The notes beneath the pieces were generated by a model. It searched no databases. It had not been told where the DNA came from and worked only from the letters and a program-made list of their open reading frames with translations. From a virus: a stretch of DNA of 40,192 nucleotides. Position numbers and translations under genes: made by a program. Shown piece by piece: positions 8,347 through 40,192 of this stretch; position 1 is the first letter of the stretch, and each line of letters starts with the position of its first letter. The stretch is taken from the UHGV virus genome UHGV-0071970; one strand, given 5' to 3'.

Positions 8347-8424
8347 TGGCGGGGCGTACAGGGCCGACTTCGGTCGGGCCGGTTTCTTCGTTTGCCGGTT
8401 GTGGAAACCCTGTACGTCTCGCCA
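8347..8424 (+). other. Second copy of the RNA-like hairpin element
   Basis: Identical sequence at +829 bp. Confidence 0.4.
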
Positions 8425-8485
8425 CCCTGAGTTTTCCACCTCTGGTTGGTGAGTTTTCAAAATTCACAAACGAAGAGGCCACACC

Positions 8486-8707: not shown

Positions 8708-8775
8708 ACCACATCCGGAAGCTATCCCACACCTGCACGCGGGAGGCTTCCGCACGTCTGTTACCGGAGGTTCTC

Positions 8776-13602: not shown

Positions 13603-13673
13603 CCGGCAGTCTCCCACTGATTCAGACAGATGAATATCATCACCACTTGCCACAAAAAATCGCAAGATCAAAA

Positions 13674-13712
13674 CTGCACAAAAGCGCACGAAATTGCACA
13701 ATTTTTCTAATG
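13674..13712. promoter_or_regulatory. Conserved 39-bp promoter-proximal element, copy A (upstream of membrane gene)
   Basis: CTGCACAAAAGCGCACGAAATTGCACAATTTTTCTAATG; 30/39 identical to the element at 16602-16640; contains three GTGCA/GTGCG repeats at about 10-11 bp spacing. Confidence 0.5.
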
Positions 13713-13932
13713 TACTTTTTCCCCATTCCGCCCGGTAACGGCGCTGGCTGAGGCCGGTTTGCACGGTGCACGAAAAACGAGGCGAGTAGTGGATGGGTAA
13801 AAATTAATAATAAGTATAAGCAATGTCGATAAACCAAGACACAACAAGTATTCAACACAATTAATCATGCACGTGCAAATAGCAATAACATTAACACATT
13901 ATTTATATAAAAAACAATCTGATATTATTTCG

Positions 13933-13963
13933 GTTGTGGGCTTGGTATTTTCAAACCCACAAC
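13933..13963 (-). terminator. Possible terminator hairpin downstream of the three-gene operon
   Basis: GTTGTGGG-N15-CCCACAAC; a U-rich run follows only after a gap on the minus strand, so weak. Confidence 0.3.
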
Positions 13964-13997
13964 AATAATATTATTTCGAGATATTAAACATAGACAA

Positions 13998-14789
13998 TCA
14001 CCCTATTTTTCTATGCATTTTCATGAGTTCCCTTATTAAGCTAGCATGAAAGATTGATACATCAGAAATCCTTGTATCAATAGATGAATCAATATTATCA
14101 GAAACCTTTTGCTCAAATAAATCGCAGATACCATCAAGTGACTCAATATCTTTTTCCAACTTAGAAAAACCCTTAAATAGATATAATGAATCCCTTAACT
14201 CCCCAAGCTTTGAAAATAGTTGGCTATCTAGTAATGATATAAATTCATCAGAGGGAAGCCCCATCGCATCCTTAAAATCTTCCGTAACTTCAAAAGCTAA
14301 TCCATTAATTTTAGGGAGAATAACTTCTCGTAACCAATACCCTTCGTTTATAGCTTCATTTCTTCCTTTATAATGCTGCCACAAAGGAACCCCTACAGAT
14401 GCAATTAGCGCAATAATTGAAATTGCTATAGAGTACCATTCAGGTCCTGATTCAGGAACTCTAACGATATTATAGAGATTCCCCGATGAGGTTGAGGGGT
14501 AATATCCATTCAGAACATAATTATCAGGTTTATCATAAAGAAGGTGCGGTGTAAACTTCCTTTCATAACTATTGCATAATTTTAGATCGCTATTTTTTCC
14601 AATGCATATATCAGCATTAAAAATGTTTCCACTCTTTGGTTCTATTACGTGAGACTCTGAATTTTGCGAATCCATGTTAGACGCGGTTCTTTCTAGATAT
14701 GTCGCAGAGCAAGCGGATATATTAACAAAAAAAATGACAGGCAATGCTGTCATTTTAAAAACAGAGCACAAATCAGAAGAACGGAACAT
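13998..14789 (-). CDS. Predicted lipoprotein/membrane protein (263 aa), cassette gene 3
   Basis: N-terminus MFRSSDLCSVFKMTALPVIFFVNISAC looks like a signal peptide with lipobox ISAC; internal TM WYSIAISIIALIASVGVPLW; acidic C-terminal domain. Start overlaps the upstream gene by 17 bp. Confidence 0.5.
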   Translation of the reverse strand: MFRSSDLCSVFKMTALPVIFFVNISACSATYLERTASNMDSQNSESHVIEPKSGNIFNADICIGKNSDLKLCNSYERKFTPHLLYDKPDNYVLNGYYPSTSSGNLYNIVRVPESGPEWYSIAISIIALIASVGVPLWQHYKGRNEAINEGYWLREVILPKINGLAFEVTEDFKDAMGLPSDEFISLLDSQLFSKLGELRDSLYLFKGFSKLEKDIESLDGICDLFEQKVSDNIDSSIDTRISDVSIFHASLIRELMKMHRKIG

Positions 14790-15117
14790 TTCGATGTAAT
14801 CCTCTTCTCACAGCCCTATCCAGCTCAGAAAGCATTCCTTCTTTATAATTCACTCCATCTAAAGATGTTCTGCTATAAAATTCATTCGGAGATGAAAAAA
14901 GAGGCAATATATTCTCTAGCATACCCAAAAAGTATGAGCTTGACACAACCACACCATTCGGAATTGATAGAAAAATCCTATCATTGTTATCAAAAGTAAA
15001 GCGATCTATGCCAAAGAAACTATATGCCTTGCGACCATTATCACGCCCAGCAAATAATTTCTTGCCGCCATCTTTAACTAATTTATTGAAATCTATATAA
15101 ATATTTGCCATTTTCAT
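14773..15117 (-). CDS. STAS-like (DUF4325-type) small protein, cassette gene 2
   Basis: Core RIFLSIPNGVVVSSSYFLGML fits the STAS-like DUF4325 pattern as I recall it; SD GAGGAA; coupled to the upstream ATPase gene. Confidence 0.45.
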   Translation of the reverse strand: MKMANIYIDFNKLVKDGGKKLFAGRDNGRKAYSFFGIDRFTFDNNDRIFLSIPNGVVVSSSYFLGMLENILPLFSSPNEFYSRTSLDGVNYKEGMLSELDRAVRRGLHRNVPFF

Positions 15118-15128
15118 TTACCTATTCC

Positions 15129-16505
15129 TCAGGTTCTTTGAGTTGCATTTTCCGGTAAAGGAAAACGTATATTAATCATAACTCCCGGAAAACGGGCTTT
15201 CTGCATACACTTAAGATAGGTACGATCTGGTTCAGATTCAAGCCCTGTATTATTAAATGGATAAGTGAATTTGTCACTTTGGTTATCTAACGTTTGCTTT
15301 TTCAACTTATAAGAACCATCAAAGTTTATATGTGTGCATCCAGAAATTAAAGACATTCTGATGTTTCCACTTAGTTCTTTGGATAGTTCTTTTAAACTAT
15401 CATGCATATCCTGGAAAAACTTCAATAGCTCAATGGTTCCCGTACCAGAACTATCTGTCTCCGTTTCATTTTTACAACTAACCCGCCCCTGCAAAGCAGC
15501 GACTGTAATCAAACCTTCTCTAAACATCCCTTTTTTATTTATGTGTTTTTCCACATAAGGGATTATGTGATTGTTATATGAATAATGTTCTAAAGAAAGT
15601 CCTGAAAAAGTTTCATCAATAGTTTTTCCAAAGTTAAAAACAGCTATTTCACATGTTGGCTGTTTTAAGCCATTATTTACAAACCCCCTCAAATACCAAC
15701 GCGGACGCTGCTCAAGCCCACAATGTCTCTCTGCATTATCAAGTAATTCGCCCATGCAAGATGTTAGATGGTTTTCTGCCTTGCTAACTAATTTTAATTG
15801 ATGATCACTTAGACACTCGTTTATATAATTAGTGAATTTCTCAGACATTCTATTTTTGGTATCTTGTGCAAATGCAGACGCATTTTCCTTGCCGATACTA
15901 TCAGCAGAGAATATTCTTTTCTTAGGGTTATCTTTTTTCGATTTTTCTGTTTCATCATGCACCTTCCCTGGCGTCACTTTATTTATTTCTTTAACCAACC
16001 CGATGTCACGAATAATTTCTAAATATTTTTCATCCTTCGGATAAATGCCATTAAGTTGTACTTGAGCATCTTTTAAATTTATATTGTGACGTTTGGCTGA
16101 GCTCAGTGCAACACCAAGGAGACATTCCGCACCTAAACAATGCTTTTTATTTTTAGTATAATCAAGCAAATATGATTTACGTTTACCCCTGGCAATCAAT
16201 CTAGTTACACCATGAATAAACAAAAGAGATTTTTCTGGATGATCAAACAAATCGAAACATTTAGGTATTATTACTCTATCTTCTTTGCGACGAAGAGTTG
16301 CAGTATCATATTTCTTTACGGATGAAATACTTTCAATAAAAGTAGCCACCTGACTTTTCACTGGTGTTACTTCGTCAGAAAAATGTAACCTTTCATAGGC
16401 TTTATATTTAATTCTTCTTTTATTTTTTCTCTCAACGCCTTTTAAAAAGCGAATCCAACCACGTAAAAAGCGTTTTCTTGCATCCTTTTTATCTATTTTT
16501 TTCAC
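15129..16505 (-). CDS. GHKL-superfamily ATPase, anti-sigma-factor-kinase-like, with about 240-aa basic N-terminal extension; cassette gene 1
   Basis: N-box-like GELLDNAERH and G-rich lid DSSGTGTIELL in the C-terminal half; GTG start at 16505 with SD AAGG; strongly AT-rich. Confidence 0.5.
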   Translation of the reverse strand: MKKIDKKDARKRFLRGWIRFLKGVERKNKRRIKYKAYERLHFSDEVTPVKSQVATFIESISSVKKYDTATLRRKEDRVIIPKCFDLFDHPEKSLLFIHGVTRLIARGKRKSYLLDYTKNKKHCLGAECLLGVALSSAKRHNINLKDAQVQLNGIYPKDEKYLEIIRDIGLVKEINKVTPGKVHDETEKSKKDNPKKRIFSADSIGKENASAFAQDTKNRMSEKFTNYINECLSDHQLKLVSKAENHLTSCMGELLDNAERHCGLEQRPRWYLRGFVNNGLKQPTCEIAVFNFGKTIDETFSGLSLEHYSYNNHIIPYVEKHINKKGMFREGLITVAALQGRVSCKNETETDSSGTGTIELLKFFQDMHDSLKELSKELSGNIRMSLISGCTHINFDGSYKLKKQTLDNQSDKFTYPFNNTGLESEPDRTYLKCMQKARFPGVMINIRFPLPENATQRT

Positions 16506-19858: not shown

Positions 19859-19925
19859 TGACGCCCCCTTGCTGTTTGATCTCAAGAGTAAACGCCCGCG
19901 CATTCATCCAGGTATCCGGTGCCAT

Positions 19926-19943
19926 TGTCGCCACGCTCTTACA
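19926..19943. promoter_or_regulatory. TGT-N12-ACA dyad in the P/O divergent intergenic region (candidate Ogr-type late activator site)
   Basis: TGTCGCCACGCTCTTACA; the P2 late-promoter dyad motif is recalled from memory. Confidence 0.4.
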
Positions 19944-20015
19944 ACATCGCCGCCTTGAGGCGCAGCCATCCCCTTATCATCATGAAGAAAAGCAACCCAC
20001 AGAAAGGGGATTTAC

Positions 20016-24989: not shown

Positions 24990-26960
24990 ATGAGCAAAAA
25001 ACACTTTGAACTGATTACTGCCACCAACCGCGCAGAATTCGCTGAAAAAGTTAACAAGCGATTACAGGAAGGCTGGGAACTTCTCGGTAATGCCGGTATT
25101 GCATCAGAGCCGGGAGTCCCCTGGTATCTCATGCAGGCTATGGTTTCAGGCAGTGATGACCAGGGAGGCACCATTATCACCCCGACATCCGACAGCGAAC
25201 CGGAGTGGTATTACGTTGTGGTGAGCGCTGGTCAGTCCAACTCTATGGCATACGGTGAGGGGTTACCTCTCCCGGACAGTTACGATAAACCCGATTCGCG
25301 CATTCGCCAGCTGGCACGCCGCAGCACCGTAACCCCGAGCGGAAAAGCCTGTGCCTATAACGACATCATTCTGGCGGATCACTGCCTGCATGACGTGCAG
25401 GATATGAGCCAGTACAACCACCCGAAAGCCGACCTGAACAAAGGTCAGTATGGCTGTGTGAGTCAGGGATTGCACATTGCGAAGCGCCTGCTGCCATTTA
25501 TCCCGGCAAATGCGGGGATCCTTCTGGTCCCATGCAGCCGTGGCGGTTCCGGCTTTACAACCGGTGATGCGGGGCAATTCAGCGAGATCGGCGGCGCAAC
25601 TGAAAAATCCTGCCGCTGGGGAACGAACACGCCGCTGTACAAGGATTTAATCAGCCGCACAAAAGCAGCGCTGGCGAAAAATCCGAAAAACGTCCTGCTG
25701 GCCGTCTGCTGGACACAGGGCGAGGCAGATCTTGAGAAAGAACAAAACGCCGCACAGCATAAAGATCTTTTCACAGCCATGGTGAAGCAGTTCCGGGCTG
25801 ACCTGGCCGATGTTGCGAAGCAGTGCAACCAGGGCAACCCTGAAAGCGTGCCGTGGATTTGTGGAGATACCACCTACCACTGGAAAAAAACCTACGAAGC
25901 ACAGTACGCAACCGTGTATGGCGGATACAAAAACAGCACTGAGAAGAATATTGTTTTTGTGCCTTTTGTTACGGATGAGTACGGGAAAAACACCCCAACA
26001 AACGAGCCGACAGAAGATCCGGATATTGCGGAAGCGGGTTATTACGGTGCCGCATCCCGCAGTAGCGGAAACTGGGTAAGCCATCTGCGTGGAACGCACT
26101 TCAGCTCATGGGCCCGCCGGGGCATTATTGCCGATCGCATGGCGTCAGCAATCCTGCTTAACGTCGGCCGCACGCTGCCATTTATTGCGGGTACAGAGCC
26201 GGAACGCGTGGCAAAACCATCACAGGATGCACCGGGCGGCATCAGTAAGCCATCTTCACCGGAAGCAGAACAACCGGCAGTCAGACCGGGGCCGGTCACG
26301 CTCATGAGTCTGCTGGCATCATCTCCTGAACTGGAAAGCCAGGGCTGGACGCTGAGCGAAGGCAAAAACGGGGCCAACACACCAAAACAACTGAAAGACA
26401 CGCTGATCGGTGATGAGGAAGCAACAGGGAAAAAAGCCCTGAAACTGACCAAACAGGAAGGCAATACCTGGTATCTGGAGCATAAGGCCGGTAATGGTGC
26501 TGACCTTCTGAAAAATGGCGGGACTGTAAGTTGCCGATTCAAAATCGAGGGTGAGCTGAAAAAAGACCAGTACGCAATGGCGATGTACTGGAAAACATCA
26601 GCATTACCGCAGGATGTGAAATTACTGGGGGCAGATCCAAATAATTTATTGCTCTCATTCTTTCTTCAGACAGACAGCGCAAACCTGAATCTGATGTATC
26701 ACAAAACGCCAAACGAACAACTGGGAACCTTTGGTCAGTTCAATAACAACTGGCACACCATAGCGTTTCGTTTTGCGGGAAACAACAGCACCCAGGTAAC
26801 ACCGGTTCTGGATGGCGTGGACGGAAAACCGTTCATGCTTTCCACATCAAAAGCCGATGTTACCAACGACACGTTACGCGTGACCGATATCACGTATCGG
26901 CCGACCTATACCGTACTGATTGACAGCCTGAGCGTTGTCGTAAATCAGCCACCGGCATAA
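24990..26960 (+). CDS. NanS-p-like carbohydrate O-acetylesterase: DUF1737-like N-domain + SGNH/SASA esterase + C-terminal beta-rich domain
   Basis: N-terminus ...FAEKVNKRLQEGWELLGNAGIASEPGVPWYLMQAMV fits the DUF1737 pattern; catalytic-serine block VVVSAGQSNSMAYGEG (GQSN). Architecture is as I recall for prophage NanS-p esterases. Confidence 0.65.
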   Translation: MSKKHFELITATNRAEFAEKVNKRLQEGWELLGNAGIASEPGVPWYLMQAMVSGSDDQGGTIITPTSDSEPEWYYVVVSAGQSNSMAYGEGLPLPDSYDKPDSRIRQLARRSTVTPSGKACAYNDIILADHCLHDVQDMSQYNHPKADLNKGQYGCVSQGLHIAKRLLPFIPANAGILLVPCSRGGSGFTTGDAGQFSEIGGATEKSCRWGTNTPLYKDLISRTKAALAKNPKNVLLAVCWTQGEADLEKEQNAAQHKDLFTAMVKQFRADLADVAKQCNQGNPESVPWICGDTTYHWKKTYEAQYATVYGGYKNSTEKNIVFVPFVTDEYGKNTPTNEPTEDPDIAEAGYYGAASRSSGNWVSHLRGTHFSSWARRGIIADRMASAILLNVGRTLPFIAGTEPERVAKPSQDAPGGISKPSSPEAEQPAVRPGPVTLMSLLASSPELESQGWTLSEGKNGANTPKQLKDTLIGDEEATGKKALKLTKQEGNTWYLEHKAGNGADLLKNGGTVSCRFKIEGELKKDQYAMAMYWKTSALPQDVKLLGADPNNLLLSFFLQTDSANLNLMYHKTPNEQLGTFGQFNNNWHTIAFRFAGNNSTQVTPVLDGVDGKPFMLSTSKADVTNDTLRVTDITYRPTYTVLIDSLSVVVNQPPA

Positions 26961-27189: not shown

Positions 27190-27245
27190 CAACAGGCACA
27201 GCGCATCAGAACGGCACCACTGTCCACAGCAAAAGAAACAAAAAA

Positions 27246-27264
27246 CCCTCCGGTATACGGAGGG
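27246..27264 (-). terminator. Intrinsic-terminator-like hairpin whose U-run is on the minus strand
   Basis: CCCTCCG-GTATA-CGGAGGG preceded on the plus strand by AAACAAAAAA (U-rich after the stem on the minus strand). Confidence 0.4.
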
Positions 27265-27361
27265 TGCAAGAGGGGAAAGGTGAGCAAGAAAGAACCCGAA
27301 TTAAAAGCCATTTAATTTTGAGATTTTTAATTGCCACACGCAACACGTTCTACGGTGTTTT

Positions 27362-27832
27362 ATGCTGAAACTGAATTCATTACGCGAAGCTCTGACCAGC
27401 AACTGCCGGTGGTGTAAGGCCAGCCCGGAAAAATTCACGGTATTCATTGAATCGGGTGGCATTGAAACCACCGGTGAATCCCCCTCATTCCTGTACCGCT
27501 ACAACCTGGTGTTGTTCGTCATGGACTTCACAGAAAGTATCGACAACATCATGCTGCCGGTCATGGCGTGGCTGTACAGGAATCAGCCGGATCTTCTTCT
27601 CAATCCGGAGAAGAACAAAAGCATCAAATTTTCGACGGCCATCAACGATGACGACAGTGCCGATATCCTGCTGGAAATCCCGGTATGGGAGCGCGTGATT
27701 GTGCGCCGTAATGACGACGGCACGGTGACGGCAGAGCACATCGGTGAGCCCCCGATAAGCCGGGCACTGGAAGCATGGCGCGTAGTGTTTGAAGACATGA
27801 CGTGGCGAACCGGAACGGAGACCAGCACATGA
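27362..27832 (+). CDS. R: Tail completion protein R
   Basis: P2 R-like pattern (MLK...SLR.ALT...F.E.Y.L.....DFT....L.V.AWL..NQPD). Confidence 0.8.
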   Translation: MLKLNSLREALTSNCRWCKASPEKFTVFIESGGIETTGESPSFLYRYNLVLFVMDFTESIDNIMLPVMAWLYRNQPDLLLNPEKNKSIKFSTAINDDDSADILLEIPVWERVIVRRNDDGTVTAEHIGEPPISRALEAWRVVFEDMTWRTGTETST

Positions 27833-30290: not shown

Positions 30291-31002
30291 AACGGTGCTT
30301 CCGCCGTCTGCCAGTGTTTTTCTGAAAACCGTTGATCGCTCCGGGGAAAAAATCAGCCAGCTGCCGGTGAAACTTAACACCCTGTGGAATGCGGACGAAT
30401 GCCCTGAAGTACTGCTGCCATGGCTCGCATGGACGCTTTCAGTGGACAGATGGGATAAGGCATGGACGGAAGAGACTCGCCGGGACGTTATACGCGAGTC
30501 GTGGATGGTTCACCGTCATAAGGGGACCATCAGCGCCATGAGAAGAGCTATTGCCCCGTTCGGCGCGCTGCTGAGCATTACAGAGTGGTGGGAAAACGGC
30601 GACCCTCCAGGCAGTTTTCGTCTCAACATCGATGTTACACATGCAGCCCTGACAGAGGCGACCTATCAGGAAATGGAGCGCATGATTGCGCTGGCGAAGC
30701 CGGTAAGCCGTCACCTGAAAGCACTGAGGCTGACATACATTGCAAAAGGGGAAGTCTTTACCGGGGCAGTGAGTCATAGCGGAGACATCATACAGGTATA
30801 TCCGGACGCAACACTGCCGAACCCCTGCATTACCGGAGGAGAAATTTATTGTGCTGGCGCGATTTACGACAGTGACATAACCCGGGTTAAACCGGATACG
30901 GAGATACCGTCACCGTGCGCCGCACAAGCCGCTATCTGTATAGCCGGAACAACATACGACGGCACAACGACCATCGTAAAACCGGCACCGGAGGAACCAT
31001 GA
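30283..31002 (+). CDS. I: Baseplate/tail protein I (C-terminally extended relative to P2)
   Basis: Overlaps the J stop; P2 I position. Confidence 0.75.
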
Positions 31003-32597
31003 CACAGAAATACAAAACCATTATCACCACTGAGGGCCGCCGGAAGCTGGCCGAAGCCCTGAAGCCCGGTGGAAAAAAAGTCACCCTGGCAAAGATGCAG
31101 GTGGGCGACGGCAACGGCCAGGAAGTGGAGCCATCAGAAGGGCAAAAACAACTGGTGAAAAAAGTCTGGGAAGGGAATATCTCCAGCATCACACAGGATG
31201 CGGAGAATGAAAGCTTTGTCACCGCAGAGCTGGTTATTCCTGCTGACCAGGGCGGCTTCTGGGTGAGGGAGATTGGGTTATTCGATGATGAAGGTGCCCT
31301 GATTGCTGTTGGCAACGTAGCAGAAGGTTACAAACCGAAGCTGGAGGAAGGTTCAGGTCGGGAGCAGGTATTCAGGATGGTTATTCTCCTGAGTAATATT
31401 TCTGCGCTGAATATTAAACTGGATCAGTCAGTTGTCATGGTCACAAAAGCCGCTCTGGATCAGGCCATCAAAGAACATGAAAAAAGCGGCACCCACCAGT
31501 CTGCATCCACAAGCACAAAGGGATTTGTGCAACTGAGCAGTGCCACCGACAGTGACAGCGAAGAAACAGCCGCAACCTCTAAGGCCATCAAAACGCTGAA
31601 AGGAATGATTAATGAAAAATCTTCAGTCACTGACGCCACGACCAGCCAGAAAGGCATCGTCCGGCTGAGCAGCGAAACGGGCAGCGCCGCCGAAAACGCC
31701 GCTGCAACACCAAAGGCAGTCCAGCTCACCATGCAGAAAGCCACTGAAGCCGAAAAACTGGCTGAACAGGCTAAACAGAGTGCACAGGCAGCAAGTGAGA
31801 AAGCCTCAACACTGGAGCAACAAATCAATGCCACAAACCAGACCGTACAACAACTTCAACAGTCAACACAAAGCGGAGCACAGAAGGCGAAATATACCGC
31901 GCTGACCGTTGATCTCAATACACTGGGAAAACCAGAACACCACGGGGATTACTATCAGTCGGCCAATAAAGATGCAACCACCGCCATGCACTACCCCGTT
32001 GAACAGGCGGGATACCTGTCCGTGAAAATGGGAGCCTGGGGTTTCTGTCAACAGGAATACACTACATGGAACCCCATCAGGAAGTTTGTCAGGGCTGTCA
32101 ACGGTAATTTCACCGGAAATGGTCCATGGACGGACTGGAAGGAACTGGGGGCCGAGGGGCCGGCGGGTCAACAAGGACCTGCCGGGCCGACGGGGCCGCA
32201 GGGGAACACCGGGCCACGAGGTTCGCAGGGAGAAACAGGAAGACAGGGCCCGGCAGGTCCACAGGGCCCGACAGGTGAAACCGGACCACGGGGACCACAA
32301 GGGCCAACCGGAAGGCTGGTACCCGGGGAAATTTACAGCATCGGAACATACATTATTGCCGCACTAGGCCCGTATATAACCGACATCGGCAGAACCTATC
32401 AGCCAGGAGAAACTGTATCGGGTTCACGCCTTAAGCGATGCGCCCTAATCAAAGACGAAAACGGAAACTATATGAAAGCTAACACCGATGGCATTGACGG
32501 CAACCTATCCTCAGTTCCGGGGTCATGGATGGTGTGTAATGAAATTACGTCGACAAATGACAATGAAGGCATCGGGCTGTTCCAGCGCGCATACTGA
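30999..32597 (+). CDS. H: Tail fibre protein H with collagen-like segment
   Basis: N-terminus [20 protein letters not shown] and the next 150 aa parallel the P2 H N-terminus (...[27 protein letters not shown]...); Gly-X-Y repeats; divergent C-terminus. Confidence 0.8.
32154..32312 (+). repeat. Collagen-like Gly-X-Y repeat (about 17 triplets) inside the tail fibre gene
   Basis: [52 protein letters not shown]. Confidence 0.8.
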
Positions 32598-32616
32598 CAG
32601 ACAGGAGATGACATGA

Positions 32617-33216
32617 ATGTGGAAAAAAATAAGCAATCCGCAATGGGCAGATAAAGATCACACTGCTGTCAATTGCATGGTGAAGTTTGAGCACATTGAG
32701 CAGGCGGTTCCTTTCACTGCAACAGCCAGCGATACCGAAGCATACGGGCGGGATATTTATGCCGCTTGTCTGAGAGGAGAGGCCGGTGAAATTGCAGAAT
32801 ATGTACAGCCATCCATCAGCCCGGAAAAAGCCAGAGAACTCAAAACCGCCGGGATCAACGCCTGGCGGAACAGAATGGAATCAGCCAGTTATATTTTCAG
32901 CTTTAATGGCCGTAACTGGGATTATGGAAAGGAAACACAGGATCGCCTTGGCCCATCAGTTATCGCAGCAAAAGAAGGCAATCTCCCGGAGAAGTTTTTC
33001 TGGACAGACGCAGACAACAACGACGTCCCCATGACTGCGGAAGAACTGATTGCGCTGAGTGAAGCCGCGCAACAGGCAATGTTCGCGAAGGGAATGGAAA
33101 TTCATGTGCGCCAGCGCAACATGAAAAAAGAGATTGCAGAACTTCAGGATGCGGAGGCCATTCAGCGTTACGTTGTGGGCTGGCCCACAACGGAAGAACC
33201 CGCCACCGAAAGATGA
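32617..33216 (+). CDS. Putative tail fibre assembly chaperone (G position)
   Basis: Follows H with SD AGGAGA; no resemblance to P2 gpG that I can see, so the function is positional. Confidence 0.45.
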   Translation: MWKKISNPQWADKDHTAVNCMVKFEHIEQAVPFTATASDTEAYGRDIYAACLRGEAGEIAEYVQPSISPEKARELKTAGINAWRNRMESASYIFSFNGRNWDYGKETQDRLGPSVIAAKEGNLPEKFFWTDADNNDVPMTAEELIALSEAAQQAMFAKGMEIHVRQRNMKKEIAELQDAEAIQRYVVGWPTTEEPATER

Positions 33217-33224
33217 ACAGCAAA

Positions 33225-33246
33225 AACGCCCTGACACCAGGGCGTT
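33225..33246. terminator. Bidirectional terminator between convergent G-position gene and U
   Basis: AACGCCCTG-ACAC-CAGGGCGTT flanked by an A-run upstream and a T-rich run downstream. Confidence 0.55.
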
Positions 33247-33251
33247 ATTAT

Positions 33252-33725
33252 TTAAACCGGAATGGACAGATTATTCAGGGCACCTTTGACGTTATTCGCA
33301 AGATCACCAAGCGACGAGGACTGAAGACGTTCACGCAGATCTTCATCCACACGCTCAAAAGTGACAGTAAACTCAATCTTTCTTGCCCGACCATAGCGAT
33401 CAAGTTCAGAGCGGGTGGTGTTAAGCCCGGTAATGACATACATCCCGTAAATCTGCCCTACCCCATCAATCAGCGGCCATGGTCGCCCGACGTAAGCCTG
33501 GCTGGTCAGTGCGGTCAGGGAGACTTCACCGCCCGTAATTTCCGGGTAGAGCAAACCCGAAAGCGTGATGGTATCGTCACCCGCGCCGATATACTGCCAG
33601 CTGGCTGAGCGGTTGATTCGCTCGTTCTTTACATGCCTCCAGTTACGGGACTGTTGTATTTGTTGGTGTGGCAGTGTGCTTAACTGAAAAACAAACATGC
33701 CGTAAATCATCATCATAACCATCAC
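33252..33725 (-). CDS. U: Tail protein U
   Basis: MMVMMMIYGMFVFQL...RNWRH...GDDTITLSG.L.PEITGG...L...GRPWPLIDG.G...GMYVI closely parallels P2 gpU. The track start at 33725 is a GTG; first ATG at 33722. Confidence 0.85.
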   Translation of the reverse strand: MMVMMMIYGMFVFQLSTLPHQQIQQSRNWRHVKNERINRSASWQYIGAGDDTITLSGLLYPEITGGEVSLTALTSQAYVGRPWPLIDGVGQIYGMYVITGLNTTRSELDRYGRARKIEFTVTFERVDEDLRERLQSSSLGDLANNVKGALNNLSIPV

Positions 33726-33727
33726 TC

Positions 33728-34117
33728 CTAATCACGATCGCGGAAACTGTTCATACCGCCGGATTGTCTGCGAATTTCTTCCCGTACCGCCTCCCCCACC
33801 ATTCTGGCAAGGTCGCGAGGGTTCTGCGTAACCACGTTGTGAAGGTGAACATGAATATCACCACCGTACACAGGCGGCGGTTCAGGAGAGCGCGAAGGCC
33901 CCCGGGGTGTCGGGGACACCGGATCCCACCGCTTAACCTCCACAGGACGGGAAGAATCCGGGGAAACCGCCGGAGACACAGGCGAAAACGCTGGCATAAG
34001 CGGAAGCCCGGGTGCAACAGTCGGTTCATTCCACTGCCCGCGAACAGCCAGCGCACGGGGGAGATTTTTAAACACGATATCGCCAGGACCGATACGCTTG
34101 CGGGCTTCCTGAAGCAT
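33728..34117 (-). CDS. 129-aa ORF between T and U; possibly the displaced C-terminus of the tape measure protein
   Basis: Its frame is open upstream to 34249 (no stop), overlapping the last 24 codons of T in a -1 frame. Proline-rich linker then ...GGDIHVHLHNVVTQNPRDLARMVGEAVREEIRRQ. Confidence 0.4.
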   Translation of the reverse strand: MLQEARKRIGPGDIVFKNLPRALAVRGQWNEPTVAPGLPLMPAFSPVSPAVSPDSSRPVEVKRWDPVSPTPRGPSRSPEPPPVYGGDIHVHLHNVVTQNPRDLARMVGEAVREEIRRQSGGMNSFRDRD

Positions 34118-34176
34118 ACCCGACGTATTACCCTCGATACCTTTGAGCCTGCGAAGAACGCCACTGGTGCCGTCGT

Positions 34177-36558
34177 TTATGACAGAAGGCTTGCCACCAT
34201 TATTACCTTTATCATTGCCATCAACTGGCTTAGCGGCGAGATAATGGCATTAACATCCCCCTGAAGCAGGGAGAGCTTGCCCTGAAGAAGCGAAGCCCGC
34301 TGTGCATCCTCCAGTTTCCGGCGCGCCCTTTCAGCTTCATCAGGCAGCACGCCAAGCTTTTCCAGTACCCAGGCAAGTCCATCCATCAGCGCCTTCAGCG
34401 GCGTAAGCGCAAGCGATATCGCCCCACTAAGTACACGACCGAAGCTTTCTCCCGCAGACGTACACCGTTCAAGAGATTCGTTGCTGGCCTGAACAGGCGT
34501 GAGTAACCGGGTAAACCAGTCAAACACCGTGGACACCGCACCCGACACCAGATCAAACAACGGCGCAAACTGAGCAATACTTTCACGAACAGGCGCAAGG
34601 CCAGCCCACAGCGACCGGAATGTGCCGAGCATGAACGCCTTAACCTGTTCCCAGTGACGCCATATGAGCAGCGCCCCACCGGCAAGAGCAGCAATCACGA
34701 GACCAACAGGACTGAGAAGACCGGAAAGCACCCCGCCCAGCACAGAAACCGCACCGGAGACCATCCCCCACAGTGCCGGAAGGCCGGACAGGCGAAGAGC
34801 AAGACCACCAACACCGTTTGTAAGCGAGGATAGCCCGCCACCAAGAAGCGCAGAGCCAAGCTGAAGTTTTGCAAAAATCCCCGTCAGTAACCCACCTCCG
34901 ACAGACAACGCACCAATGGCCGTTGTGGCCGCAAGCACGCCACCCACGGTAAGGGTCAGCGTGCGTACAAGCTGCGGGTTTTCCTGAACCCACGACCTGA
35001 AGCGTTCACCCACAGAAGCAACAGCCTGTACAAGCTCGCGGATATCATCAGTAACCAGCGACACAACATCACTGCGAATACCGGAGAAAATGCCGGACAG
35101 ACGATCGGTGTCGCCGCCGAGGTTGTCACGCAGAACATCCCCCATTCGCCGGGCGGTTCCCTGAACCAGCCCCATACGGTCAGATACCGTTGCAAGCGAC
35201 CGGAGAAAATCCGGGATCTGGTCAACAGCCAGATCTTCAATGGGTGTGCCGAACAGCGCTATCGCCGCATTGGCCCGTTCTGCAGGATCCTGAATCTGTA
35301 ACAGACCTGACGCGGTGCGACGCATCGCTTCACGCGCGACCGCGCCGCCACTGGCGATCGCTGACGACATTCTTTCAGCGTTAAGGCCAATCAGCTCATA
35401 GGCTTCAACGCTGGATTTGGACATATCCGAGCCGCGAATACTGAATTCTTTGACAGCATCGCCGGTTTTATCCAGGGCGAATTTCCCCTGCTGCGCCATA
35501 CTGACAAGCAGCGTCATGGTTTCAGAGCCGGATAGCCCCATATTGCGGAAATGCGTGGAATACTCATGCAGAATTTCAGGAAGTTCGCCGCGCATTTCGG
35601 AAGACATTTTCTGCATCCCTGCCGCCATCAGGTCCACGGCCTCACCTGCATTTGCGGCAAGCCCGTTTTTCAGCATAATGCCGGCAGCCTGAACCTGTTC
35701 AGCCACATTACCGCCGGTGACCTGAGCAAGATCGATTGCCTGCCGTGCCACCCTTTCCAGTTCTTCAGTACCTACGGTACCCAGTGCGCCAAGCGTGCTT
35801 TGCGCCGCAGCTGCTGCTTCCGAAATCATCGCGATATCCGTGGCCGCACCTGACGCACGGATGCTCTGAATCATACGGCTGTAGCGCTGGCCGTCTTCTG
35901 CGCTGCCGCCACTCTGTGCCGCAATGAGCGCCCCCTGCCGTTGCTCTTCAACAACAGGTGCAACCGCGCGACCGGCAGCATACAGACCGGCACTGCCAGC
36001 CGCCATGGCAACAGCACCGCGCTGACTGAGCTTACCGGCAATATCCTGAACACGGTCATAGCGTTGCTGCGCCTGCGTGACGCGTGCAAGCTGGCCCCGC
36101 TGGCGTTCGAGCTGATCGTTGTATTCCTGCGTCCGCCTGATTGCCCTCTCGACCGTACGGTTACTTCCGTCCGCCCGTATACCGTGAGATTCCAGTTCGC
36201 GACTGGCTTCGCTAAGTCGGGATTTGTGGAGGGAATAAACCGTATTAAGGCGATCAATCTTCACAGTCAGCGAGCGGATAGCTTCCTGCTGTTTTTCCGT
36301 TAGTGTTGTGCCTGTACGCTGGGCCTCCTGGAGGCGCTGAAGTCGCGCACGCGCCTCGTTCAGACTGTTTTCAGTCGAGGTCACCTGCTGGCGGGCACGG
36401 GAAAACGCATCACTGCTTCGCTGGAGTGACTTAAGAGCGTTCTGCGTGGAGGAAAGAGATTCAGAAAGCGCGCCGGTCATTTCCCGGGCGCGCCTGACGG
36501 GTTGAGTGAGACGGTCGACCGCAGTAAGGGCTACACGTATCTGGAGATTATTACTCAT
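34177..36558 (-). CDS. T: Tail tape measure protein T (as annotated, 793 aa; may be interrupted near its 3' end)
   Basis: Long alpha-helical Ala/Gln/Arg-rich protein after E/E'; ATG at 36558 overlaps the E' stop (ATGAGTAA). Confidence 0.8.
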   Translation of the reverse strand: MSNNLQIRVALTAVDRLTQPVRRAREMTGALSESLSSTQNALKSLQRSSDAFSRARQQVTSTENSLNEARARLQRLQEAQRTGTTLTEKQQEAIRSLTVKIDRLNTVYSLHKSRLSEASRELESHGIRADGSNRTVERAIRRTQEYNDQLERQRGQLARVTQAQQRYDRVQDIAGKLSQRGAVAMAAGSAGLYAAGRAVAPVVEEQRQGALIAAQSGGSAEDGQRYSRMIQSIRASGAATDIAMISEAAAAAQSTLGALGTVGTEELERVARQAIDLAQVTGGNVAEQVQAAGIMLKNGLAANAGEAVDLMAAGMQKMSSEMRGELPEILHEYSTHFRNMGLSGSETMTLLVSMAQQGKFALDKTGDAVKEFSIRGSDMSKSSVEAYELIGLNAERMSSAIASGGAVAREAMRRTASGLLQIQDPAERANAAIALFGTPIEDLAVDQIPDFLRSLATVSDRMGLVQGTARRMGDVLRDNLGGDTDRLSGIFSGIRSDVVSLVTDDIRELVQAVASVGERFRSWVQENPQLVRTLTLTVGGVLAATTAIGALSVGGGLLTGIFAKLQLGSALLGGGLSSLTNGVGGLALRLSGLPALWGMVSGAVSVLGGVLSGLLSPVGLVIAALAGGALLIWRHWEQVKAFMLGTFRSLWAGLAPVRESIAQFAPLFDLVSGAVSTVFDWFTRLLTPVQASNESLERCTSAGESFGRVLSGAISLALTPLKALMDGLAWVLEKLGVLPDEAERARRKLEDAQRASLLQGKLSLLQGDVNAIISPLSQLMAMIKVIMVASLLS

Positions 36559-37086
36559 CGTTATGATTCCCGGTTCTGACGGCCGCCCGTTCTCGCCAGG
36601 CAACCAGTTCACCGGGAGTCATCACAAAGATTTCAGAGGGCGACCAGTGAAATACAACGGCTATATCAGCGACAATATCTTCAACGTAATCAAAAGCAAG
36701 AAGCGTTACGCGCCGCCCGCCTCCTGCGCCTTCTTCGCTGACGAGGGAAGCAAAAAACCGACTGCCACCTCGTACAGTTTAAAGAAGTCTTCCGGGCACA
36801 TTGACATAAGTGCCGCGCGGCTGAGGTGAGGTTCAGTTACGCGTTCCAGAAAAATGGCGGCAGCATCAACATCGGTGTTGAACAGGTCCGTCATGCGGAT
36901 CCCTCGAAGCGAGCCCACCTGACGCGCAAGCGCCCCAATCTTCACGCTGGAAACCGTCTTATTACCGCAGACAACAGGAACCCTGAGATTAACCGTGTCA
37001 TTTGCGATCGCCTCTGCGTTTTCCGTGTCTCCATTCGTCACAGCATCTGTGTCATTCGTCACGATATTTTCTTCAGTCTGATCCAT
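36551..37086 (-). CDS. E+E' fusion chaperone produced by programmed -1 frameshift
   Basis: The -1 frame is open from the slip site to a TAA at 36551-36553 (about 68 extra codons) and ends overlapping the T start, as in P2 E/E'. Confidence 0.6.
36706..37086 (-). CDS. E: Tail assembly chaperone E
   Basis: 126 aa; SD GGGAGA; contains the slippery heptamer near its 3' end. Confidence 0.8.
   Translation of the reverse strand: MDQTEENIVTNDTDAVTNGDTENAEAIANDTVNLRVPVVCGNKTVSSVKIGALARQVGSLRGIRMTDLFNTDVDAAAIFLERVTEPHLSRAALMSMCPEDFFKLYEVAVGFLLPSSAKKAQEAGGA
36751..36757 (-). promoter_or_regulatory. Slippery heptamer T-TTT-TTG for the E/E' -1 frameshift
   Basis: Minus-strand GGTTTTTTG with zero-frame codons TTT TTG. 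Confidence 0.65.
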
Positions 37087-37137
37087 TATTTTTCTCCCGG
37101 GGCAACAGGACGCCGCCCCTGTTATCAGATTTAACTA

Positions 37138-37650
37138 TCAGCCAAGCCCCAGCATGGAGCGGGTGCGGTCAGGAAGAACATCCTTACCATCAATGCGCCA
37201 GATGAAGTTCAGCACGTCGATTTCAATAACATCGCTGTTATCAACGCTGAGCTTGTACCAGGTGCATTTCATCGCATAGGTATGTTCGGTATCTTCACCC
37301 TGTTTGGCCTCGCCCTTGTCGATTTCGACAATGCGACCACGGGCTTCAATATCGACGTACTCAATCCCTTCTTCGGAATAGTATTCACCCGAGAAGCGAA
37401 CACGCACGGCATCAATACCGGCGGCGTATTTGGCAAAGATGTGACGATCGACGCCACCAACCGCAAAGGAGAGATCCAGTGCACCATCATCAAGACCGAG
37501 ATCCACCGACGCAGAGCCTGGCATCCCCGCCCCGCGATACGACTCTGTTTTACGGGTCAGTTTTGGCGGGGTAAAAGACGTCACCTTTCCCAGCTTGTTG
37601 TCACCGTCCACAAAGACGGTAAACACACGAAGTTTTTTTGGTACGGCCAT
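37138..37650 (-). CDS. FII: Tail tube protein FII
   Basis: 170 aa, P2 FII-like; start overlaps the FI stop (TAATG). Confidence 0.85.
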   Translation of the reverse strand: MAVPKKLRVFTVFVDGDNKLGKVTSFTPPKLTRKTESYRGAGMPGSASVDLGLDDGALDLSFAVGGVDRHIFAKYAAGIDAVRVRFSGEYYSEEGIEYVDIEARGRIVEIDKGEAKQGEDTEHTYAMKCTWYKLSVDNSDVIEIDVLNFIWRIDGKDVLPDRTRSMLGLG

Positions 37651-38843
37651 TAGCTACCTCCAAGAGATGCAAAAGCAGAGCTGAAGAACTCGTCGGTAAA
37701 CGTCTGATAGAGTTCCATACACTCCATCGGCGGAACAGGCGTGTATTTGTAGCGAATACGCACAATGCCCTGACGAAGACTGGTTGTGCCGTTGTCGATG
37801 ATATCGAACCAGCACTCAGCCCCGATGAGTTTTCCGGCTGTCACCAGTGCATCCAGCTTTGCCTTGATAGCGCTCACGGCATCCTTAGCATTGGCAGGCG
37901 TAAGCGGTGAATCCACTATCTGAAGTTGCGCCTCCGCAATGGTGTCAGCCAGTTGCTGCGCCGTACGTGTGTACACCTCAAAGATGTACTCCGCAGTTTC
38001 CGGCGTACGGTTACCCCAGAAACGGAAGGAGCCGTCGCCCTGGTGAATAAGAGTGGTCACCTCGCTATTGTTCAGCGTGTTGGCATCGCTGTTTTCATCC
38101 TGAAGTGACCAGGAAACAGACGCTGACACCCCAAGAACATTTTTCACAGGCATGTTAGAAAGGGAGCGATGCCAGCCCTGTTCATGGTCGAGTCGGGCAC
38201 GAAGACCGCACGCATACGCCGCAGCCGGGAAGGTTTCGTTTTTACCGGACACCGGGTTGAACGCAATGAAATCAGGCCACAGAAGCATGATTTCGCGACC
38301 GGAAATCTTTTTACGAAACGCAATAGCATCGGACGGTTTTGTGCAGCCAGGGCAGCCGGAATACGCAAATGCGCGCATTTTTCCGGCAACAGTCACCAGT
38401 GCAGCCGTGACAGCATCCGATTCAAGGCCCGGAGCGGCAAGAATGCGGGGTCGGTAACCAATACCTTCCATCTGTTCGGCAACCAGAAGCGCCTGCATAC
38501 CGCTGTAGCTTCCGTCTTCTTCCGTGGTACCAATGACCAGTTGATCCTGTGTTTTATTCTCAGCCCCCTCTTTTGCCGCCTCCACGCGAACGACAATCAC
38601 CCGTGTACTGACCTGGTCAGATATCGCTTTAAGGGCCTTATAAAGCGTGCCCGCTTTCCCGGCCTTCCCCAGAACAGAAGATACACGGGTAATCAGCACT
38701 GGCTTGTTAAGGGGGAACTGCCCGGTATCCGCATCATCTGCAACGGCAACAATACCAATGACGCTGGAATCAACGTCATTAATGGCCGTCACAAGGTCGG
38801 TATTCTCCGTGACGCGCACACCGTGAAATCGTTTTTCAGCCAT
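37650..38843 (-). CDS. FI: Contractile tail sheath protein FI
   Basis: Close match to the P2 FI pattern (FPLNKPVLIT, KLRAF.YSG, LRA..D.EQGWH..LSN, GFRFWGNRT, NYTRTAQ, RI.Y.YTPVPP). ATG at 38843 with SD GGTGA; the track alternative is 38855. Confidence 0.9.
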   Translation of the reverse strand: MAEKRFHGVRVTENTDLVTAINDVDSSVIGIVAVADDADTGQFPLNKPVLITRVSSVLGKAGKAGTLYKALKAISDQVSTRVIVVRVEAAKEGAENKTQDQLVIGTTEEDGSYSGMQALLVAEQMEGIGYRPRILAAPGLESDAVTAALVTVAGKMRAFAYSGCPGCTKPSDAIAFRKKISGREIMLLWPDFIAFNPVSGKNETFPAAAYACGLRARLDHEQGWHRSLSNMPVKNVLGVSASVSWSLQDENSDANTLNNSEVTTLIHQGDGSFRFWGNRTPETAEYIFEVYTRTAQQLADTIAEAQLQIVDSPLTPANAKDAVSAIKAKLDALVTAGKLIGAECWFDIIDNGTTSLRQGIVRIRYKYTPVPPMECMELYQTFTDEFFSSAFASLGGS

Positions 38844-38895
38844 ACGATTCACCATCAGTTGTGTTTATGCTCGCCTGAATAATCCACCATTGGCG

Positions 38896-38922
38896 CACAG
38901 CCCTCACCTGATGCGGGCTGTG
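38896..38922 (+). other. Hairpin CACAGCCC-N11-GGGCTGTG followed by T7, in the FI/D divergent spacer
   Basis: 8-bp perfect stem; T-run starts 4 nt after the stem on the plus strand. Confidence 0.35.
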
Positions 38923-38936
38923 GGGATTTTTTTACA
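38919..38936. promoter_or_regulatory. TGT-N12-ACA dyad in the FI/D divergent spacer
   Basis: TGTGGGGATTTTTTTACA, about 60-80 bp from both the FI and D start codons. Confidence 0.3.
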
Positions 38937-38996
38937 ACAGAGCCGGACAGAAACGACAAGGTACGCGTGGGATGATACGCACACGGGAGGGATATC

Positions 38997-40142
38997 ATGA
39001 GCATCACTGAATCAGTAACACATCACATCAACAGCGCACTGGATGCAGCGGAAGATACCGTTAGGGTGCCAGACTTCACTATCACACTGGAAGGGAAAGA
39101 TGCCAGCCTGAAGAACATCACGCAGCGCATCATGAGCCTGACCATGACAGACAACAGGGGTTTTGAGGCTGACAGGGTGACACTGGAAATCGACGACGCC
39201 GAGGGCGGGGTGGTACTTCCGGAACGCGGAACACGATTATCGCTGGCGATGGGATGGAAAGGTGAAAGCCTCACTCGCAAGGGAACGTTTGTGGTGGACG
39301 AAGTGAGCCACGAAGGTCCGCCGGATAAGCTGACCATATCCGCGAACAGTGCGGATTTTCGCGAAGAGTTTAACGTGAAACGCGAAGTCTCCTGGCATGA
39401 CGTGACCGTTGAGCGTGTGGTATCTGCCATCGCGCACCGTTACGGACTGAAAGCACAAATCAGCGAAATGCTGATGAATATCGAAATCGACCATGCAGAC
39501 CAGACAGAGGAAAGCGACATCTCGTTCCTCACGCGCATGGCTGACATGCTGGGTGCAATAACCACCGTAAAAAACGGATGCCTGCTGTTCATTCTGCCGG
39601 GTGGCGGTGTGACAGCCAGCGGGCGCGCCCTCCCCTCATTCGCCCTGACCCGCTCGGATGGCGACAGTCATCGCTTTCGCATTGCTGACAGAAAAGCCTA
39701 TACCGGAGTGAAAGCTTACTGGCTGGATTTAAAGTTCGGCCAGAAGAAGGCCGTGAACGTGAAAAAGCGAAACGCGAAAACCACACAGAAGCCGGAGAAA
39801 AGCAGTTCACGGGAGGGTGGATACATGGAAGGCGCAGAAGGCAATGTGTATGTGCTGAGAAAAACCTACCCGAACGAAGAAGCCGCGCGTCGCGCAGCTG
39901 CCGCACGCTGGCAGCAACTTCAGCGGGGTGCAGCAGAATTCAGCATCACGCTGGCGCGCGGACGCGCCGACCTGTATCCGGAGATGCACGGCACGGTATC
40001 CGGGTTCAAGAGCGACATTGACAATCAGGACTGGGTTATTTCGCGCATTGAGCACGTCATCGACGACAGCGGCTTCACCACCAGACTGGAGCTGGAAGCA
40101 AAAATCGCAGACTGGATAGCAGAGCGCGCCACGACTGGCTAG
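38997..40142 (+). CDS. D: Tail protein D (late control D family)
   Basis: 381 aa; SD GGGAGGG; motifs TLTDNRG, EADRVTLEIDDA, ASWHD, IDHADQTEESD match the gpD family as I recall it. Confidence 0.85.
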   Translation: MSITESVTHHINSALDAAEDTVRVPDFTITLEGKDASLKNITQRIMSLTMTDNRGFEADRVTLEIDDAEGGVVLPERGTRLSLAMGWKGESLTRKGTFVVDEVSHEGPPDKLTISANSADFREEFNVKREVSWHDVTVERVVSAIAHRYGLKAQISEMLMNIEIDHADQTEESDISFLTRMADMLGAITTVKNGCLLFILPGGGVTASGRALPSFALTRSDGDSHRFRIADRKAYTGVKAYWLDLKFGQKKAVNVKKRNAKTTQKPEKSSSREGGYMEGAEGNVYVLRKTYPNEEAARRAAAARWQQLQRGAAEFSITLARGRADLYPEMHGTVSGFKSDIDNQDWVISRIEHVIDDSGFTTRLELEAKIADWIAERATTG

Positions 40143-40192
40143 AATGAGCGCGAGCCCACCCCGTTTCAGCCTGGGGGACCATCATGCATCCT

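Follow-up and report, generated by a model that had tools for sequence, protein, structure and literature searches.

Inverted FI-to-U tail block of an Escherichia coli P2-like prophage as a probable ancient hallmark of one Enterobacterales clade

The tail sheath, tube, chaperone, tape measure, and U genes of UHGV virus genome UHGV-0071970 (the window, here meaning the whole stretch of 40,192 nucleotides analyzed) are encoded on the other strand from D and the fibre genes. We consider it very probable (roughly 0.85) that this layout derives from a fixed, ancient inversion of the segment PF–FI–FII–E/E′–T–U that defines a single clade of Enterobacterales P2-like phages (Peduoviridae), together with the account of the FI–U and D promoters developed below. 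This clade includes Xuanwuvirus (P88), Novemvirus, Reipivirus, Reginaelenavirus, and Serratia phage KSP20, as well as the prophage of the window, which in E. coli is flanked by dmsA and serS.

The window carries a P2-like contractile tail module, with homologues of all six components (sheath FI, tube FII, chaperone E, tape measure T, U, and hub D) present in Pfam and PHROGs searches (Table 1). The same searches confirm the gene identities and strands assigned in the initial annotation, namely, H and the G-position gene on the plus strand, U–T–E/E′–FII–FI on the minus strand, and D on the plus strand. The canonical order that it gave for P2 (V–W–J–I–H–G and FI–FII–E–E′–T–U–D sharing a strand, and D closing the F operon) agrees with the P2 RefSeq record.

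Table 1. Features of the tail region, in window coordinates
Feature	Position	Strand	Evidence
H, H-type tail fibre gene	30915-32597	+	Pfam Phage_tail_fib 2e-51, also Phage_fiber_2
G-position gene, tail-fibre assembly type	32617-33216	+	Pfam DUF4376 2.8e-20, phrog_1141
Bidirectional intrinsic terminator	33225-33246	both	terminator scan, fold z-scores
U, tail protein	33252-33725	-	Pfam Phage_P2_GpU, E 5.6e-40; 49% identical to P2 gpU
T, tape measure, as a whole	33728-36559	-	phrog_28 and phrog_17114 match, split over two ORFs
E, chaperone	36706-37086	-	Pfam Phage_TAC_7, phrog_103 1.5e-23
E+E′ via predicted -1 frameshift	36551-37086	-	slippery heptamer, open -1 frame
FII, tail tube	37138-37650	-	Pfam Phage_tube 4.3e-49
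FI, tail sheath	37650-38844	-	Pfam sheath domains, phrog_23 6.7e-114
Predicted -10 of FI (PF) late promoter, GATTAT	38879-38884	-	conservation, P2 analogy
Ogr/Delta-type dyad, GCTGT-N12-ACAAC	38917-38938	–	core TGT-N12-ACA 38919-38936, centre 38927.5
Predicted extended -10 of D promoter	38969-38977	+	conservation in diverged spacers
D, baseplate hub/"late control D"	38997-40142	+	Pfam Phage_GPD, phrog_52 6.7e-153

Some gene boundaries are refined by comparison with other copies. In the near-identical E. coli copy NZ_CP145707 (PGAP annotation), the start of H corresponds to position ~30990; the probable start of U is the ATG at 33716; and the FI ORF reaches back to an ATG at 38855, whereas the gene starts at 38844 in the relatives and, according to PGAP, in a 99.6% identical copy. 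The G-position gene, the last of the plus-strand baseplate/fibre operon, has 87 to 88% nucleotide identity to fibre-assembly genes of the lambdoid PhiR/P-Eib phages. At the other end, the window holds only the first 9 nt of ogr, the ogr/Delta-like gene for the cognate zinc-finger activator, which follows D by 41 bp in the 99.6% identical copy.

Within the block, gene content, internal order, and the E/E′ slippery site are those of the P2 F operon. The slippery heptamer, GGTTTTTTG at 36751 to 36757, is the same as the annotated frameshift site of P2, the -1 frame is open up to the start of T, and the E′ stop (36551 to 36553) overlaps that start, features that together suggest a programmed -1 frameshift upstream of T. 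The sole peculiarity of the window copy is that T lacks 1 nt (GG versus GGG near 34235, a single gap in the blastn alignment). This deletion divides the gene into two ORFs (34177 to 36612 and 33728 to 34117) and could be a sequencing error; if genuine, it would be expected to deprive the prophage of functional tails. T is intact, at 943 aa, in NZ_CP145707.

The layout proves to be widespread. Relatives were found by protein-level searches; when the block was compared by megablast with 50,697 phage records, the fibre-assembly region alone matched. All 80 IMG/VR relatives have D on the plus strand diverging from FI on the minus strand, with U–T–E–FII–FI opposite to D, H, I, and J. The same layout occurs in each of the 13 informative species-representative (GTDB) genomes whose D is 62 to 76% identical (among them Edwardsiella, Citrobacter, Salmonella, Brenneria, Klebsiella, Serratia, Pantoea, and Rouxiella) and in six phage records (P88, 520873, phiT5282H, ST16-OXA48phi5.4, Kp4860-2, and KSP20), again with D at least 62% identical, bearing out the expectation of a fixed or lineage-specific arrangement. 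In contrast, all genomes with D at 43 to 52% identity (61 of 61) show the canonical P2 order, as do Dagavirus, Kapieceevirus, and P2 itself. The earlier reading as a clean FI-to-U inversion with intergenic breakpoints is supported. Across the 102 loci of the clade, the layout is identical (FI-to-U opposite to D and to H/I/J): it is invariant inside the clade and absent outside it. The initial annotation had named, as an observation that would count against its view, that close relatives share exactly this arrangement as their norm; all relatives with D at least 62% identical do share it, and the arrangement is therefore the ordinary state of a populous clade, not a local anomaly, although the earlier interpretation itself holds. 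FI diverging from D thus offers a simple marker of the clade among enterobacterial P2-like prophages, one that is without exception in our sample, in which the split falls at ~60% D identity. P88 and PhiSM, whose layout is as here, are inducible or plaque-forming (PMC5285337, PMC6456863), and phages with the inverted layout are viable.

The arrangement in P88 and other members of Xuanwuvirus, phiT5282H (Novemvirus), ST16-OXA48phi5.4 (Reipivirus), Kp4860-2 (Reginaelenavirus), and KSP20 is identical to that of the window: D and ogr share one strand, FI–FII–E–E′–T–U diverge from them, and the fibre genes lie beyond U on the strand of D. Their FI, U, and D proteins are 63 to 76% identical to those of the window (~73% protein identity for P88), whereas no megablast-level DNA similarity extends across the tail block; a megablast of 32500 to 39500 found no match to the P88 tail block that would place the prophage in Xuanwuvirus. 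Genera are delimited in ICTV practice at ~70% nucleotide similarity over the full length. Given the lack of megablast-level similarity in the tail block, the prophage of the window falls outside those genera by nucleotide criteria.

Simple neighbour-joining trees of D, FI, and J, computed without bootstrap, place the inverted loci, including the lineage of the window, in one clade with no canonical member inside, such that the inverted loci are monophyletic both for genes of the block and for genes beyond it. The D tree shows the inverted enterobacterial group as sister to the canonical one, and polarity hence hangs on the outgroup. That sister relationship would accommodate the reverse history, in which divergent FI and D are ancestral and the P2 order is derived, but we judge this history very improbable: the outgroup, a Billgrantia prophage, has the canonical order. 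Burkholderia P2-like phages are also canonical, with U and D of KS5 adjacent on the same strand and overlapping by a few bases (PMC3091744), and a Mannheimia hit has D and U together under one match. The overlap of U and D in canonical genomes is, moreover, consistent with translational coupling and with an old arrangement.

Neither junction shows signs of misassembly or of a switch. When the 7 kb from 32500 to 39500 were compared with complete E. coli genomes, the region was whole and collinear in 15 independent ones (87 to 99.6% identity), and the junctions are collinear in >100 related loci from many genera. The chance that the block arose in assembly, or by a recent inversion confined to the strain of the window, is negligible. 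A reversible, invertase-driven flip of FI–U, of the kind by which Mu, P1, and P88 switch their fibre segments, also yields opposite-strand blocks near tail-fibre genes, and P88 and 520873 do encode a DNA invertase directly beside U. The P88 invertase, however, adjoins alternative fibre and chaperone cassettes, its usual substrate. Switches of the Gin/Cin/Hin type depend on an invertase gene and on short crossover sites in inverted orientation, and they occur in both states side by side. The FI–U block shows none of these traits. As initially noted, there are no inverted repeats that pair the two junctions (33217 to 33251 and 38845 to 38996), the search returning scattered chance pairs only, and no invertase is listed in the PGAP annotation of the 99.6% identical prophage. 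No locus in the opposite state was found among the 15 E. coli genomes, and 102 of 102 loci of the inverted clade have the block in one orientation relative to D. With these results, a switch is scarcely credible, in line with the earlier view; misassembly and a one-off event are likewise rejected for the block.

At the left junction, where an invertase and alternative fibre cassettes separate U from H in P88-type phages, the window has a 35-bp gap over which U and the G-position gene converge and which contains the terminator. This hairpin (9 pairs, 6 of them G-C, with a 4-nt loop) matches the terminator scan on both strands and has RNA fold z-scores of -4.46 (plus) and -3.47 (minus), in agreement with the bidirectional terminator first proposed there. 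The FI–U operon and the baseplate/fibre operon would thus end at one common bidirectional terminator.

At the right junction, FI and D are separated by a divergent spacer, as described at the outset, although its length is not 153 bp but 152 bp when counted from the FI start at 38844, or 141 bp from the ATG of the longer ORF at 38855. The spacer contains the TGT-N12-ACA dyad exactly where it had been reported. This motif is the P2 late promoter consensus as cited in PMC3931495. The bare motif is no rarer than chance in the window (10 seen versus 9.5 expected), and we dropped its count as evidence in favor of an extended dyad of 10 positions and its conservation across lineages. At a match of at least 9 of 10 positions, the extended GTTGT-N12-ACAAC has only two sites in 40 kb, both of which lie in divergent late-gene spacers: P/O (19924 to 19945) and FI/D (38917 to 38938). 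Upstream of R (27245 to 27362), the best candidate for an Ogr dyad scores 7/10 and is too near the start codon. The core TGT/TCT-N12-ACA is kept in 101 of 102 inverted loci, with a left half-site of TCT in place of TGT, a mismatch to the textbook core, in 87 of the 102; the sites of P2 itself are also imperfect, reading TGT-N12-CCA at PF and at pP/pO. Upstream of FI, the dyad lies 78 to 88 nt from the start codon in inverted loci and 78 to 82 nt in canonical loci (83.5 nt in the window and 82.5 nt at PF of P2), and this likeness supports homology of the FI/D-spacer dyad with PF.

The dyad is flanked by -10-like hexamers equidistant from its centre, at 44 to 49 nt on either side. In 22 diverged spacers (each pair differing at >30 of 170 positions) stacked on the dyad without gaps, GAnnAT is conserved at -44 to -49 on the FI side and TGn-nAnnnT at +41 to +49 on the D side; in the window, the latter corresponds to a TG at 38969 to 38970, one base, and GATGAT at 38972 to 38977. 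From these elements, transcription of FI (PF) is predicted to start at ~38872 and that of D at ~38984, the two predicted starts being ~112 bp apart. The Shine-Dalgarno sequence GGGAGGG lies at 38986 to 38992; the predicted D leader is short (~13 nt), a point against the D promoter. Scanned for the sigma-70 consensus, the spacer yielded no full promoter. At FI/D, an Ogr/Delta-type dyad appears to stand upstream of putative promoters that have no good -35 element. A stem-loop with a T run at 38896 to 38930 was considered as a terminator in the spacer and rejected (z = -1.8, not significant, and without conservation among relatives); in the lineage of the window, the T run is the spacer of the dyad itself.

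This geometry, with a conserved dyad at the midpoint of a pair of conserved -10-like elements, upholds the suggestion that the dyad is placed to serve either of the divergent promoters, and it is that of pP/pO in P2. There, the RefSeq record has a single "activator binding site; pO, pP promoters" at 3057 to 3087, between starts at 3016 and 3127 that are 111 bp apart and each 55.5 nt from the dyad centre. In both systems, a symmetric dyad is midway between back-to-back promoters, although the P2 pP/pO sites are annotated from experimental work, whereas those of FI/D are predicted from sequence conservation. The P/O spacer of the window follows the same design as P2 pP/pO, and in the P88 group the spacer dyad and both -10 elements are conserved as in the window.

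The surroundings of D differ from those in P2, where the F operon runs with V–W–J–I–H–G, and D comes last, its start codon overlapping the end of U. In the window, D (48% identical to its P2 counterpart from residue 25; 49% for U) stands apart from the operon, is preceded by a Shine-Dalgarno sequence of its own, and begins with a diverged N terminus ~10 residues longer than that of P2. The inverted segment would have brought along its own PF promoter and the symmetric Ogr-binding dyad, and this single dyad would now sit ~55 nt upstream of each of two late promoters placed back to back, for FI–U and for D. Most likely, judging from motif conservation and P2-like spacing, the PF activator site moved together with the block and has come to drive D as well.

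Alternatively, the dyad might serve FI (PF) only, with D transcribed from an Ogr-independent promoter, such as an extended -10, or from elsewhere. Extended -10 promoters of sigma-70 can function without an activator or a -35 element, and the conserved TG one base upstream of the D-side hexamer could permit activator-independent transcription. With no full sigma-70 promoter in the spacer, the shared-dyad and Ogr-independent readings both need a noncanonical promoter. We regard Ogr-independent transcription of D as unlikely: even in diverged lineages, the D-side hexamer mirrors its FI-side counterpart at a constant distance from the dyad, which an activator-independent promoter would not need; the geometry is the same as that of the annotated shared activator site of P2 pP/pO; and D is a late structural gene, expected to share the regulation of the other tail genes.

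Returning to the shared dyad, the 99.6% identical copy has no terminator-like site separating ogr from D, so transcripts of D probably run on into ogr. On balance, we favor, with some reserve, the view that the inversion created a second bidirectional Ogr-dependent late promoter beside pP/pO, making D an independent late unit that probably reaches ogr. No such promoter arising by inversion is described in the literature searched. Similarly, we found no explicit description of the inversion itself in the literature on P88, PhiSM, KSP20/PP4, the Burkholderia P2-like phages, or global P2-like diversity, a survey with limited coverage of subscription journals, in which absence is no proof. The layout as such is already known as the arrangement of a lineage of sequenced and classified phages.

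As the normal state of a large, sequenced, and classified P2-like group, the layout gives no reason to mark a genome as rearranged, misassembled, or carrying a decaying prophage, and it has little importance beyond annotation. The conserved FI/D spacer, for its part, predicts a second bidirectional late promoter with a shared activator. If this is true, the shared FI/D promoter would show that Ogr-type regulation tolerates operon rearrangement, and it would offer a case from nature in which part of an operon can invert without regulatory loss because its upstream activator site is symmetric.

The window is a P2-like prophage of E. coli, and a near-identical copy (99.6%; strain S1-CAM-02-A, NZ_CP145707) lies between dmsA, on the integrase side, and serS, on the D-ogr-hok side. 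Every gene name in the initial annotation was confirmed by Pfam and PHROGs, and the layout that it described, with the FI-to-U block on the strand opposite to the flanking late genes, is present in the window. The P2 order that it gave matches the RefSeq record, in which V-W-J-I-H-G and FI-FII-E-E'-T-U-D share one strand, D is the final gene of the F operon, and the start of D overlaps the end of U. The slippery site in E (GGTTTTTTG, 36751-36757) is identical to that of P2, and the -1 frame is open up to the start of T.

Tail-region genes and predicted promoter elements of the prophage
Feature	Coordinates	Strand	Basis
H	30915-32597	+	Pfam/PHROGs
G-position gene, DUF4376	32617-33216	+	Pfam/PHROGs
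U	33252-33725	-	Pfam/PHROGs
T, tape measure	34177-36612	-	Pfam/PHROGs
E	36706-37086	-	Pfam/PHROGs
FII, tube	37138-37650	-	Pfam/PHROGs
FI, sheath	37650-38855 (longer ORF)	-	Pfam/PHROGs
FI-side predicted -10, GATTAT	38884 to 38879	-	conservation in spacers
D-side predicted extended -10, TG-G-GATGAT	38969-38977	+	conservation in spacers
D, hub protein	38997-40142	+	Pfam/PHROGs

Relative to NZ_CP145707, T is split by a 1-nt deletion (GG versus GGG, ~34235) into 811-aa and 129-aa ORFs (33728-36612, minus strand), and over a 7-kb query the near-identical E. coli copies each have one base more than the window; the frameshift is either a sequencing error or the mark of a tail-defective prophage. A 656-aa protein (24990-26960, plus strand; DUF1737, SASA carbohydrate [sialate O-acetyl] esterase, and DUF6645 domains) separates the lysis genes from R in the window, a position at which P2 lacks such a gene. 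Between the replication genes and the portal gene Q, at the position of old/tin in P2, sits a low-GC island (13057-16505, minus strand; 35 to 41% GC versus about 55% elsewhere), whose four ORFs (458, 114, 263, and 235 aa) had no matches in Pfam and PADLOC searches and could be cargo or defence genes of a kind not yet characterised.

The inverted arrangement is real and not unusual. The whole 7 kb from 32500 to 39500 is collinear in 15 complete E. coli genomes of unrelated origin (87 to 99.6% identity), which excludes misassembly, and a rearrangement private to this prophage is likewise excluded by a search for relatives sharing the arrangement as their norm: all 80 IMG/VR loci with D 70 to 95% identical are inverted, as are 13/13 informative loci with D 62 to 76% identical in bacterial assemblies surveyed at one genome per species (only informative loci being counted). 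The latter come from Edwardsiella, Citrobacter, Salmonella, Brenneria, Klebsiella, Serratia, Chania, Rouxiella, Pantoea, Symbiopectobacterium, and Trabulsiella, plus one "Vagococcus" assembly that is probably contaminated. Two Firmicutes assemblies, Vagococcus sp. WN89Y (L094, with a complete inverted tail block) and Planococcaceae UBA3378 (L163), carry D genes 72 to 76% identical to that of the window, most likely on contaminant contigs. At 43 to 52% identity in D, all 61 loci from the one-genome-per-species assemblies have the P2 order, as do Dagavirus and Kapieceevirus phages (51 to 53%).

By protein, the closest deposited phages are P88, P884B11, 500465-2, PhiSM, phiT5282H, KSP20, and several Klebsiella phages. 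P88 (Xuanwuvirus) is laid out exactly as the window: sheath-tube-E-E'-T-U run opposite to D, and beyond U the fibre genes are on the strand of D again. The window's prophage falls outside Xuanwuvirus by nucleotide similarity, yet is clearly a member, with P88, of one inverted-block clade. The same layout occurs in 520873, Novemvirus phiT5282H, Reipivirus ST16-OXA48phi5.4, Reginaelenavirus Kp4860-2, and Serratia phage KSP20. In the 520873 record (6676-9820), an IS100 element breaks the sheath gene and both T and D are fragmented, so this record is a decayed prophage, not a working phage. Since P88 and PhiSM can be induced or form plaques (PMC5285337, PMC6456863), the inverted arrangement is fully functional.

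The inverted loci group together as a single clade, with no canonical sequence among them, in each of three neighbour-joining trees (D, FI, and the baseplate gene J). When the D tree is rooted with a Billgrantia prophage, which has the canonical order, the sister of this clade is the group of canonical enterobacterial loci. A single inversion on the stem branch of the clade explains this most simply, in keeping with the fixed or lineage-specific rearrangement originally proposed. A reversible switch flipping the FI-U block is very unlikely: a search found no inverted repeat pairing the two junctions and the near-identical prophage has no annotated invertase, both in line with the initial annotation, and every locus seen has a single orientation. 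P88 does have an invertase next to U, but this adjoins alternative fibre cassettes, the usual substrate.

At the convergent junction of U and the G-position gene, the 35-bp gap holds a hairpin (33225-33246) with a 9-bp stem; it is scored as an intrinsic terminator in both directions and folds far more strongly than shuffled controls (z-scores of -4.5 and -3.5), bearing out the proposed bidirectional terminator. Nearby, the stretch 32500-33156, which takes in the 3' end of H together with most of the G-position gene, has 86 to 88% nucleotide identity to fibre-assembly genes of lambdoid PhiR phages and P-Eib prophages (87 to 88% for the fibre-assembly gene), which points to a fibre module exchanged between phage types; elsewhere in the tail block, nothing in the phage collection matches at the nucleotide level.

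FI and D do diverge from a spacer, whose length is 152 bp from the FI start at 38844 (PGAP and alignments to relatives), or 141 bp if the longer ORF's first ATG is used, and not the 153 bp first given. The bare TGT-N12-ACA pattern of its dyad, with 10 occurrences in the window against 9.5 expected, is no rarer than by chance. The extended GTTGT-N12-ACAAC, at ≥9/10 positions, has only two sites in the 40 kb, one in the FI/D spacer (38917-38938) and one in the P/O spacer (19924-19945). The latter, ATTGT-N12-ACAAC, is the sole other strong extended dyad and has -10-like hexamers about 44 to 50 nt to each side, a shared-activator design of the type annotated for P2 pP/pO. Upstream of R (27245-27362) there is a terminator-like hairpin (about 27246-27266) and no convincing Ogr-type dyad; with S overlapping V, the R-S-V-W-J-I-H-G unit lacks a PV of its own.

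The dyad core (TGT or TCT-N12-ACA) is kept in 101/102 loci. An alignment of 60 distinct FI/D spacers was joined by a gapless stack, anchored on the dyad, of 22 spacers differing pairwise at >30/170 positions. Conserved in these spacers, besides the dyad, are a GAnnAT hexamer on the FI strand and an extended -10 (TGn-nAnnnT) on the D strand, each 44 to 49 nt from the dyad on opposite sides. In the window, the two elements are symmetric around the dyad centre (38927.5), with predicted transcription starts at ~38872 and ~38984, an interval of about 112 bp; this mirror spacing agrees with the original view of a dyad placed for either divergent promoter. The dyad lies 78 to 88 nt upstream of FI in inverted loci, 78 to 82 nt in canonical relatives, and about 82.5 nt in P2, and these matching distances support its homology with the activator site of PF, the FI late promoter, carried with the inverted block.

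As originally noted, D lacks its normal upstream operon, the inversion having parted it from PF; the terminator would stop read-through from the fibre operon, so D would need its own promoter. We infer that the PF activator site was recruited to serve D too, and that D is probably expressed via the FI/D-spacer dyad. One rival is still live, though less likely: the dyad may activate FI alone, with D transcribed from an activator-independent extended -10 promoter. The fixed mirror-image spacing of the D-side and FI-side elements argues against it. Expression of D through the shared dyad would follow a design already known from P2, whose late promoters have a TGT-N12-ACA consensus and depend on Ogr (summarised in PMC3931495): the RefSeq record gives a single "activator binding site; pO, pP promoters" (3057-3087) with starts at 3016 and 3127 (111 bp between them), both at a distance of 55.5 nt from the midpoint of TGT(3063)-N12-CCA(3080). 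The near-identical copy has no terminator-like site between D and ogr, so D transcripts probably run on into ogr. The ogr start lies 41 bp beyond D (the window covers only the first 9 nt of ogr), and at this junction (window 40140-40145 and record L002 10637-10689) a TAGAAT overlapping the D stop codon is a candidate -10 of an ogr promoter.

The inverted layout can already be seen in public annotations of classified phages, with KSP20 and P88 published, and we found no explicit comment on the inversion in the searchable literature, which covers P2 work only in part. The original finding is correct, correctly interpreted, and ordinary; the sole small addition is the prediction that the activator site of PF came to serve D.
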